From assembly GCA_963764715.1 (NCBI GenBank), contig CAVXTP010000021.1, forward strand, positions 192,001 to 256,000: a stretch of DNA of 64,000 nucleotides, given 5' to 3'. Shown here in pieces: positions 5,137-61,270 of the stretch. Below the pieces are notes generated by a model that saw nothing but the letters and a program-made list of their open reading frames with translations, searched no databases and was not told the DNA's origin. Position 1 is the first letter of the stretch; every line of letters begins with the position of its first letter. This DNA is from an uncultured Acidobacteriota bacterium (GTDB taxonomy: Bacteria > Acidobacteriota > Thermoanaerobaculia > UBA5066 > Gp7-AA6). Position numbers and translations under genes: made by a program.

Positions 5137-5258
5137 GCTTCGCCCACTGGATTCTGCAGGGCTGGGAACGTCGCTCGCTCGTGCGCGAGCCCTGCGCCTT
5201 CGGGCGCATCGGGAGAGTCTTGGCTCTGCGGACGACAGGCTGAGGAAGAAGGGCTGAC

Positions 5259-39320: not shown

Positions 39321-39358
39321 CCGCTTTCCCCCTCCCTCGCCCGACTGTTTCATCTGTT

Positions 39359-39514
39359 CGCGGCGCGAATAGTCTCCCGACCGGGGGGAGGGAGGAGGTT
39401 CGCGCCGCGGGAGCGCAGCGGGCGGCGGGGGTCAGGCGTGCGGTCGAGCGTCGTCCGCGAGCCGCACGCCGGTGCGTCCTTAGGACGCAGACCCCCGACA
39501 CCCGTGGAGCGACG
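39359..39514 (-). repeat. Structured intergenic element, copy A (ncRNA-like or palindromic DNA repeat)
   Basis: Four stems; reverse complement aligns to 60930-61085 with compensatory substitutions. Confidence 0.75.
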
Positions 39515-39515
39515 G

Positions 39516-40772
39516 TTAGATTTCTGCCGAGCCCGCCGCATCGGGCAGTGTCTGCTCCGTTTCGGTGTGGCGGGAGGGCTCCGGGAGCTTCACGAAGATC
39601 GCGGCGGCGAGCGCTCCGAGGAGAAAGGTCAGGCCCCAGAGCACGCGGGCCCCGGCCCGCTCGAGCACGACGGTCCCCGCCCACGGGCCGATGCCGAAGG
39701 CGATCGAGAAGACCATCGTGTACAGGCCGCTGTACTCGCCGCGCCGGGCGTCGGGCGCGATGTCCGTGGCGTAGGCCGCCGATGCGGGGAAGAAGAGCAT
39801 TTCCCCGAACGTCCAGATGACGACCGTCCCGGCGAGCGACCAGAAGTCCCGGGCGAACGCCATCGCGCCGAAGCCCGCCCCCGACAGGATCGCGCCCAGC
39901 GCGAGCGTCCGCCGGTGGGACCAGTGCGCCGTGGCGGCATTGAGCGGGATCTCGAGGACGACGATGAGCAGGCAGTTGAGCGAGAAGAGCAGGCCGAAGG
40001 TGCGCGGCGTGAAGCCGAGGCCGTCGACGATGTAGAGGGGCATCGAGGAGATGTGCTGAAAGAAGATGACCGTGACGGGCAGCACCCCCGCGAGAAAAAA
40101 CAGAAAGCGCAGGTCCGCGTGGGCGGCCGTCGAGAGACGCAAGCGGGTGGCCGTCGTCGGGGCGGGAGTGCCGGCGGGGACGACGGCCTTCTTCTTCTTG
40201 CCGTTCGGGAGGGCCGCGCCGGCGAGCACGAGCCCGGCGGCGAGCGACGTCGCGCCGTCGACGAAGAAGAGGTACCGGAAGGCGATCGTGGCGAGGATCC
40301 CGCCGATCGCCGGCCCGATCGCCATTCCGAGGTTGATCGCCAGGCGGTACACGGCGAAGGCCGACTTGCGCCGGGAGGGCTCGACGGTCTCGGCGAAGAA
40401 CGACATCGCGGCCGGCCGGAAGGCCTCCGTGAGCATCGCGAGGACGATCGTGACCCCCGCGATCGCCAGCCTGCCCTGCGCGAAGGGGTAGACGAAGAGG
40501 GTCGCGCCCGAGAGGAGCAGGGACGTCCGCATGAGGGGCACCGACCCGAACCGGTCGCTCAACCGGCCGGCGAGCGGTCCGCACACGATCGCCCCCACTC
40601 CGTACAGGAAGAGGACGAAGCCGGCCTGCTCGGGCGAGAAGCCCCGCTCCCGCGTCAGATACAGGACGAGGAACGAGAGGACCATCGAGCCCGCGCGGTT
40701 GACGAGCTGCGAGCCGGCCACCACCCAGACCGGCCGGGGCAGGTACCTGAGGTCTTTCCAATACTTCAGCAC
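39516..40772 (-). CDS. MFS transporter
   Basis: About 12 hydrophobic segments; GRLSDRFG motif A. Confidence 0.93.
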   Translation of the reverse strand: MLKYWKDLRYLPRPVWVVAGSQLVNRAGSMVLSFLVLYLTRERGFSPEQAGFVLFLYGVGAIVCGPLAGRLSDRFGSVPLMRTSLLLSGATLFVYPFAQGRLAIAGVTIVLAMLTEAFRPAAMSFFAETVEPSRRKSAFAVYRLAINLGMAIGPAIGGILATIAFRYLFFVDGATSLAAGLVLAGAALPNGKKKKAVVPAGTPAPTTATRLRLSTAAHADLRFLFFLAGVLPVTVIFFQHISSMPLYIVDGLGFTPRTFGLLFSLNCLLIVVLEIPLNAATAHWSHRRTLALGAILSGAGFGAMAFARDFWSLAGTVVIWTFGEMLFFPASAAYATDIAPDARRGEYSGLYTMVFSIAFGIGPWAGTVVLERAGARVLWGLTFLLGALAAAIFVKLPEPSRHTETEQTLPDAAGSAEI

Positions 40773-60850: not shown

Positions 60851-60924
60851 TGGGAGGTCGTTCAATGGTAGGACAACTGGCTCTGGACCAGTGAATCGGG
60901 GTTCGAGTCCCTGCCTCCCAGCCA
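60851..60924 (+). tRNA. tRNA-Gln (anticodon CTG)
   Basis: Acceptor TGGGAGG/CCTCCCA, anticodon arm ACTGG-CTCTGGA-CCAGT, GTTCGA T-loop, encoded CCA. Confidence 0.97.
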
Positions 60925-60929
60925 AATCA

Positions 60930-61085
60930 CGTCGCTACGCGCTTCGCTTCGGGTCTGCGCCTGACGGCGCACCGGCTCGCGGCTCGCCTGTGGGCTCGAC
61001 CGCGAGCCTGACCCTGCGCTCCGCGCGTCGCTTCCGCATCGCGGACCTCCTCCCTCCCTCCGGTCGGGAGACTTTCCGCGATGCG
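60930..61085 (+). repeat. Structured intergenic element, copy B
   Basis: Same stems and conserved loops as the reverse complement of 39359-39514. Confidence 0.75.
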
Positions 61086-61270
61086 AGCGGTTGAACTCTC
61101 ACGGCTCCCTCGCTTCGCACGGCGTTCCCTACTGCCGGGGGTCTGCGTCAGCGCCGCGCTGTGCACGGCGCTCGCTACTGCCGGGGGTATGCCTTCGCGG
61201 GTCGGGTCGGTGGTAGGGTCACGCCGCGAACGGATGTTCTTTGCGGGGCGGGTGTCAGGGGCCCTCGGTC

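Follow-up and report, generated by a model that had tools for sequence, protein, structure and literature searches.

A dispersed, modular family of CGTC-tagged hairpin repeats behind genes of uncultured Thermoanaerobaculia, probably of the REP/BIME kind

Two copies in the window and their fold

The window, i.e. the whole 64,000-nt stretch of DNA that was analysed, contains two full copies, A and B, of an unannotated structured element. Copy A is read from the minus strand; its tag (39515-39509) abuts the TAA (39518-39516) that ends an MFS transporter ORF. Copy B is read from the plus strand, with a tag that starts at 60930, 5 nt past the 3' end of tRNA-Gln(CTG). The features of both loci are as follows.

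39349-39523, minus strand: copy A, full form with 5' tag, three-way-junction domain, P4 hairpin and short tail (covariance model, 163.7 bits, E 1.1e-31, model 1-174; fold z = -6.83)
39509-39515, minus strand: 5' tag CCGTCGC of copy A (from the sequence; tag kept across family alignments)
39357-39411, minus strand: P4 hairpin domain of copy A, with 11-bp outer stem, internal loop, CUCCC/GGGAG inner stem and apical mini-stem (consensus structure and MFE fold)
39516-40772, minus strand: MFS transporter ORF, the sense gene 5' of copy A (ORF list; Pfam MFS_1, E 8.2e-54)
60921-61095, plus strand: copy B, full form (covariance model, 164.8 bits, E 6.4e-32, model 1-174; fold z = -4.66)
60930-60935, plus strand: 5' tag CGTCGC of copy B (sequence and model alignment)
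61034-61085, plus strand: P4 hairpin domain of copy B (model alignment and MFE fold)
60851-60924, plus strand: tRNA-Gln(CTG), the sense gene 5' of copy B (ARAGORN; Rfam tRNA, 59 bits)

The two copies are 83% identical across 193 aligned columns. A sequence-only reading of this DNA had described them as a pair in opposite orientations with stems P1-P4 that differ by paired changes, a 29-nt segment within P4 identical at 27 positions, a conserved 5' CGTCGC tag that is indeed kept in the family alignments, and a start at a gene end in sense orientation. Our analysis reproduces all of these features; both copies are real, but they are not a pair, as the genome holds about 39 copies. None of 200 dinucleotide shuffles per copy folds as well as A (z = -6.83) or B (z = -4.66). 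In a search of the window with the covariance model, A and B are the only full matches; the P4 domain of copy A is near-palindromic and its plus strand (39359-39409) also scores with the model. A weak match at 5160-5258 on the plus strand (15.5 bits, E 0.089) is either a degraded short form or chance. Immediately 3' of B, between 61100 and 61200, lie two copies of another short repeat, which ends in CTACTGCCGGGGGT and is similar to the tail part of a larger repeat of GTAG type present elsewhere in the genome.

The description of the element as unannotated stands. An Rfam search of the whole window at gathering thresholds returned tRNA only, the region around B gave nothing beyond chance-level matches at E <= 10, and ten loci comprising full, short and distant-genus copies gave 0 matches.

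In the consensus layout an unpaired 5' tag, (C/A)CGTCGC, is followed by an outer helix, P0/P1, which closes a three-way junction whose other arms are the hairpins P2 and P3, and then by P4 and a tail that varies between copies. In P3 the internal loop is conserved and the tip varies. In P4 an 11-bp stem leads through an internal loop to an inner stem and a 2-bp tip, which covaries too. CGTCGC is invariant or nearly so, being present in 27/27 aligned copies (one with a 1-nt gap) and in most of 102 model matches, and within the genus the 29-nt pyrimidine-rich segment hardly varies.

Structural selection, proposed earlier from the paired changes between A and B, is borne out in larger alignments. 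RNAalifold applied to 27 copies of this genome gives 46 pairs, 23 of them with compensatory changes; the covariance model likewise derives from 27 copies of this genome. In the alignment of 102 model matches from other MAGs (100 distinct rows), which was fitted to the model and so favours structure, and whose copies are related, so that the figures overstate independence, 97.7% of the cells pair compared to 84.5% after column shuffling, with 0 of 500 shuffles reaching 97.7%; double changes occur in 32 of the 46 pairs, and the covariation score is 0.255 as against 0.072 for shuffled columns and 0.016-0.048 when the partners are slid. The base pairing of the stems is thus under selection, and we infer that selection sees the fold of each repeat copy. 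At paired positions G-U combinations are barely in excess of A-C (48 versus 35), and the fold is therefore not clearly strand-specific.

Two other explanations of the conserved sequence were rejected. A read-through peptide or small ORF is incompatible with indels between copies that break every frame and with a tail ATG that is not conserved. A hammerhead-like three-way junction was considered as well; its core motifs are absent by eye, and Rfam gives no match.

Copy number, modules and position at gene ends

In the genome of the window (4.36 Mb, 70% GC) BLAST and nhmmer find 43 matches, 38 of them near full length; with the covariance model the count at E <= 1e-6 is 39. The covariance model and genome search suggested by the sequence-only reading extend the family across the genus: every one of 24 genomes sampled has matches, from 1 to at least 67 where 67 candidates were scored per genome. 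Matches were also obtained in 4/4 genomes of g3, a genus of another family in the same order, and in 1/3 genomes of genus g4; scoring more candidates raises the count to at least 71 copies in G026 and at least 93 in G028, both of g3. The model has no match in the nine genomes of genera g2, g5, g6 and g7. An exact P4-core pattern, searched in one genome per species, hits at least 125 stretches, and among the matches listed all 80 belong to Acidobacteriota/Thermoanaerobaculia MAGs; viral contigs contain 0 exact matches to it. The repeat family is dispersed and lineage-specific, and its presence and copy number differ between sister species. A search of literature listings returned nothing that joins Thermoanaerobaculia with repeat terms.

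Identity between copies within the genome has a median of 0.715 and a maximum of 0.933 apart from one duplicated segment. The copies in this genome are old, and near-identical copies marking recent movement were not found in it. The duplicated segment comprises two regions (G000:C19:22800-23495 and G000:C20:15500-16200) that are nearly identical including their flanks, with element copies 99.4% identical; they probably reflect duplication in the assembly or variation between strains, and not recent transposition. Matches to a short 'solo site' pattern, CGTCGC...CGCGA(A/G)C, number 144, lie nearly all in coding DNA and are uninformative at 70% GC; the heptamer CCGTCGC alone is common, with 4169 matches.

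The family is modular. Full forms of ~165-175 nt occur beside forms of ~105-115 nt, in which the junction domain is replaced by a plain hairpin, and ~85-nt forms that consist of the tag and P4 only; a single copy has up to six helices. In the g3 genome G028 a P3-like module is found 3' of P4. Among the g3 copies (G026, G028) some have exchanged the CCUCC...GGGAG inner helix for an unrelated, still-pairing sequence. The pyrimidine motif is therefore one helix variant and not a conserved single-stranded signal, which weakens the earlier suggestion of an anti-Shine-Dalgarno (CCUCC) function. Among 36 P4-core matches in the genome there is no sign of an autonomous parent, i.e. of a P4 core without the 5' part or split from it by cargo; only two matches lie outside known copies, and both are noise inside coding sequence.

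The position of the copies is anchored on the 5' side. In the window's genome 17 of 28 distinct copies start 1-4 nt past a coding-like sense stop, and three more overlap an ORF end or follow a short 5' stub; a stricter automatic count places 16/38 at 0-2 nt from a sense stop. In other MAGs, 44 of 92 copies lie directly past a sense stop, at 0 nt (n=6), 1 nt (n=26), 2 nt (n=10) or 6 nt (n=2), and the stops before the repeat are TAA in 20, TAG in 16 and TGA in 8 of these 44. A sense tRNA gene of one of six tRNA species lies 0-7 nt 5' of the repeat for 9/93 copies in other MAGs and 2/38 in this genome. The 3' side is unanchored, with 5-120 nt to the stop of the convergent gene, and convergent gene pairs enclose about half of the copies. 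The upstream genes are functionally unrelated; 16 of 19 ORFs have Pfam matches, among them ribosomal protein L9, EF-Ts, ClpP, GGDEF, MFS and VWA.

As a control, GTAG REPs of the same genome have a sense stop 0-2 nt before GTAG in 1/224 cases and overlapping GTAG in 27/224, an imperfect comparison since the REP unit seems to begin ~9 nt upstream of GTAG. At sister-species loci without the element the native spacers are ~4-50 nt, and at 7 of 8 loci the native stop codon lies at the same position whether the site is filled or empty. Target-site duplications were found neither in the flanks of 36 copies nor in comparisons of filled and empty sites. Other mobile repeats and small elements likewise land directly after stops in these compact genomes, and short native spacers may account for part of the stop adjacency; the dominance of the 1-nt distance is not covered by them.

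Turnover at the same site and candidate enzymes

Eight sites were compared with their counterparts in sister species. At site A the element is absent in 8 of 11 other genomes, in place in 2 and inverted in 1. One of the two in-place copies is partly deleted and the other belongs to another subfamily; the inverted copy is joined to the convergent gene, whose ORF extends 16 nt into the repeat. After tsf, six of 14 genomes carry the element, one (G017) has a decayed remnant and in seven it is missing. At the clpP site G017 has P4 alone straight after the stop and the window's genome the full form. Other junctions in sister genomes are occupied by a 'solo' form, in which the tag is fused to the 3' end, by another subfamily or by a different MITE. 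The solo forms (G013, G041) and the P4-only form (G017) are either empty targets or deletions between short direct repeats. Modules are thus gained, lost and exchanged at a given site, and pairing is kept despite sequence divergence.

Ten same-site comparisons show how the stems change: 35 double changes keep pairing, 11 single changes break it and 6 keep it via G-U. At 6-11% coding divergence, this ratio of 35 double to 11 plus 6 single changes argues for replacement or exchange of whole hairpins at the same site and points away from stepwise compensation. Much of the stem 'covariation' between same-site copies would then reflect whole hairpin modules exchanged between copies. The rate of divergence differs between sites. 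The tsf copy diverges by 2.4-3%, versus 5-7% in the coding flanks and 11-16% in the distal spacer, whereas other same-site copies diverge by 12-18%, versus 6-11% in coding flanks and 23-26% in spacer. The slow divergence of the tsf copy could indicate a local function.

Linked RAYT/HUH or GIY-YIG genes, to which the sequence-only reading had drawn attention, were looked for beside the repeat and not found. The genome has five Y1_Tnp matches, and no repeat copy lies within 1.5 kb of them. A RAYT-like Y1 gene of 172 aa (G000:C17:16536-16853; L034:1324-2133) has GTAG REPs only on both flanks; the GTAG REP 10-mer has 265 matches in the genome, and these REPs are a family separate from the 165-nt repeat. 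Two TIRYT-like Y1 genes of ~320 aa (L031:1396-2428, L033:1379-2446) have 31-45-nt terminal inverted repeats with GGGGTCAG. Across the 24 genomes of the genus, copy number follows the presence of neither Y1_Tnp nor small GIY-YIG genes. No Y1 match occurs in G019 (30 copies), small GIY-YIG genes are missing from G023 (61 copies) and from the window's genome (39 copies), and G014 has such a gene and 1 copy. MITE-like derivatives of TIRYT-type repeats in G013 and G017 sit at junctions that hold the 165-nt repeat in the window's genome.

Relation to known repeats and competing readings

Taken together, A and B are probably small non-coding, non-autonomous repeats of the REP/BIME kind, i.e. mosaics of GC-rich hairpin modules whose single-strand fold is under selection. 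The family is high-copy, extragenic, hairpin-forming and mosaic and lies after ORFs, in line with broad REP/BIME-like criteria. According to PMC3733652, REP/BIME elements are likewise dispersed non-coding GC-rich hairpins whose stems keep pairing, carry an unpaired terminal tag that gives orientation, combine modules into mosaics, and are found 3' of ORFs, mostly between convergent or co-directional genes, with a lineage-specific distribution and variable copy number; the paper also states that REPs adjoin ORF 3' ends and that GTAG tags can supply TAG stops. Read in this way, the 165-nt repeat is a large, branched, modular, CGTC-tagged REP/BIME variant and not a new kind of RNA gene, and the supplementary family lists of PMC3733652 and PMC11893778 might already include an Acidobacteriota entry. 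A trans-acting enzyme would recognise the fold in single-stranded DNA and copy or recombine the repeat; alternatively or additionally, the fold may act as 3' untranslated RNA of the upstream gene. Handling of the repeat as a single-stranded nucleic acid, one of the options raised earlier, fits a dispersed, modular and variable family better than a stand-alone ncRNA does.

Several differences from known REPs speak against this assignment. With 85-175 nt, up to six helices and a three-way junction, the repeat is far larger and more branched than a REP of 20-40 nt, its tag is CGTCGC and not the GTAG of REPIN-RAYT systems, and no copy flanks the RAYT-like gene or is linked to any mobilising enzyme. 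Its start is fixed 0-2 nt from native stop codons, a spacing not predicted by any known REP mechanism. Target duplications and near-identical copies that would show recent movement are lacking, and the tsf copy is more conserved than its flanks.

The tag leads to the second of two REP superfamilies, GTAG- and CGTC-tagged, of which the CGTC type is without transposase according to Di Nocera et al. (2013, PMC3733652). Like CGTC-tagged REPs, including the Neisseria dRS3/NTS repeats and Ssn-related motifs, the 165-nt repeat has an unpaired 5' CGTC followed by a hairpin and no transposase beside its copies, four matching bases being weak evidence of membership. In PMC3733652 the families CGTC-1 to -4 have stems of 8-9 bp that begin with A/T pairs, loops of 4-5 nt and the tail CCA. 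In contrast, the first helix of the 165-nt repeat is GC-rich and variable (2-9 bp), it encloses anything from a short loop to a junction domain of up to 100 nt, and there is no CCA tail.

Other classes of mobile repeat agree less well. Unlike MITEs, the repeat has no terminal inverted repeats beyond a 7-8-nt imperfect complementarity between its ends (5' CCGTCGC, 3' GCGA(A/G)CGG) and no duplication. The constant 4-5-nt left target of an IS200/IS605-type PATE is not seen, the left flanks varying between TAA, TAG, TGA, CCA and T-runs, nor is a link between orientation and the direction of replication, as copies on the two strands are intermingled along the chromosome of G028, a single-contig genome, judged by eye.

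ERIC/IRU, enterobacterial RU-1/RU-2, pneumococcal BOX and Neisseria Correia elements are 100-170 nt long, modular or imperfectly palindromic and non-autonomous, and lie in transcribed intergenic regions. The repeat would be alike in size class and modularity; it differs in having neither terminal inverted repeats nor target duplication, and no sequence or Rfam relation to them was found. Integron attC sites lie right after the stop of the upstream ORF, have conserved ends around a variable, sometimes branched centre and work as a folded single strand. The repeat shares the position right after the upstream stop and the conserved ends around a variable, branched centre. However, its copies are single and scattered behind housekeeping genes in conserved synteny, with no R''/R' core consensus at the ends, and an integron attC was rejected for this dispersed single-copy context without cassette arrays.

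It is possible, if on balance unlikely, that the repeat works primarily in cis as an RNA device in the 3' UTR of the upstream gene, transcribed together with that gene, and has spread through the genome only secondarily; this reading and the REP-like one can both hold. Possible roles of such a device are 3'-end stabilisation, termination or insulation of transcription where convergent genes are tightly packed, or supply of a processing site; alternatively, its folding could be linked to the ribosome at the stop codon, under which the tag and the 5' half of the outer helix would lie. This would be consistent with the sense orientation, the adjacency to stops (17/28 in this genome; 0-2 nt in 42/92 elsewhere) and to tRNAs, the use of all three stop codons with an unanchored 3' side, and the location of about half of the copies between convergent genes where native spacers at empty sites measure only ~4-50 nt. 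The conservation of the tsf copy relative to its surroundings and the pairing kept in old, diverged copies point in the same direction. However, genomes of a single genus carry anything from 1 to at least 67 copies, in most species the orthologues of the upstream genes lack the repeat, remnants are decaying (G017 at tsf, the partly deleted copy at site A), and the same-site copies other than tsf diverge faster (12-18%) than coding flanks (6-11%). Moreover, the G-U to A-C ratio of 48 to 35 is unlike that of typical strand-specific RNA structures, there is no U-tract 3' of P4, and landing right past stops is shared with other mobile repeats.

The anchoring can also be taken by itself. Its components are the start 0-2 nt past native stops of three kinds or 0-7 nt past six tRNAs, the constant sense orientation, the lack of duplication and the re-occupation of junctions by other subfamilies. 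That these reflect gene-end-directed integration by an undescribed mechanism, or a portable 3'-end RNA module, we regard as decidedly unlikely; for such a module, folding would be tied to translation termination by the ribosome or to maturation of the tRNA 3' end. The anchoring to stops and tRNAs and the re-occupation of junctions could serve to study site choice and whether the repeats act on the upstream transcript.

A very unlikely reading is that the repeat is a variant Ssn-related motif, a CGTC-tagged hairpin that would be bound and cut as ssDNA by an SsnA-type GIY-YIG nuclease. In PMC11893778, such nucleases are described for the Neisseria NTS/dRS3 repeats, CGTC-tagged hairpins are tied to small GIY-YIG ssDNA nucleases, and the NTS is a CGTC-led 28-nt hairpin whose upstream tag SsnA requires. 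The unpaired 5' CGTC, the hairpin behind it and the defined orientation of the 165-nt repeat fit this picture, and small single-domain GIY-YIG ORFs occur in ~12-14 of 24 genomes of the genus, 4/4 of g3, 1/3 of g4 and 0/9 of genera without the repeat. In the window's genome with its 39 copies, however, the sole GIY-YIG match lies in a UvrC-sized 603-aa frame and canonical SRM repeats have 0 matches. Six relatives do have ~100-aa GIY-YIG genes, which are flanked by CGTC-tagged ~28-nt hairpin repeats and not by the 165-nt repeat; these loci give no full covariance-model match with filters off. A single-domain GIY-YIG homologue flanked by the 165-nt repeat was thus found neither in the window's genome nor at the GIY-YIG genes of the six relatives. 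The canonical SRM repeats of the relatives are a separate family, gene presence does not track copy number, and the sequences diverge after CGTC. The GIY-YIG loci of the relatives (L238-L243) fit the SsnA/SRM architecture of Neisseria, which is absent in the window's genome, and at one of them (L243 in G017; 1240-1396, 1848-1866) the ~28-nt repeats form an array with a 46-nt period.

A stand-alone trans-acting ncRNA, a ribozyme or an anti-Shine-Dalgarno sponge around the CCUCCUCCCUC loop, options raised by the sequence-only reading, are barely credible: the multi-helix fold covaries and the 29-nt segment is nearly invariant in the genus, but a genome holds dozens of diverged copies of a modular family whose presence differs from one sister species to the next and some of whose members decay, copies can do without the junction domain, some g3 copies swap the CCUCC/GGGAG helix, CUCCC is paired with GGGAG in the fold and hence not free, Rfam has no match, and the copies abut upstream genes, which leaves no room for a promoter. 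For genome scans this means that covariation between two copies may stem from a module-exchanging repeat family and need not mean an RNA gene.

Knowledge of small structured repeats, one of the least understood components of bacterial genomes, derives almost entirely from Proteobacteria. In uncultured soil Acidobacteriota (Thermoanaerobaculia), a large, branched, modular relative of REP/BIME elements would thus exist beside GTAG REPs, TIR-type elements and, in relatives, SsnA-type repeats. The 165-nt repeat and the GTAG REPs are often close neighbours. A GTAG REP lies at most ~130 nt downstream on the same strand for 13 of 38 full-length copies of this genome (copies too near a contig end being skipped), frequently ~45-55 nt 3' of the repeat with a poorly conserved linker. 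At one locus (L021; G000:C8:5917-6290) a partial tandem array of three units with an 83-nt period is found, in which each unit joins the 3' half and tail of P4 to the 5' half of a GTAG REP, suggesting recombination between the two families.
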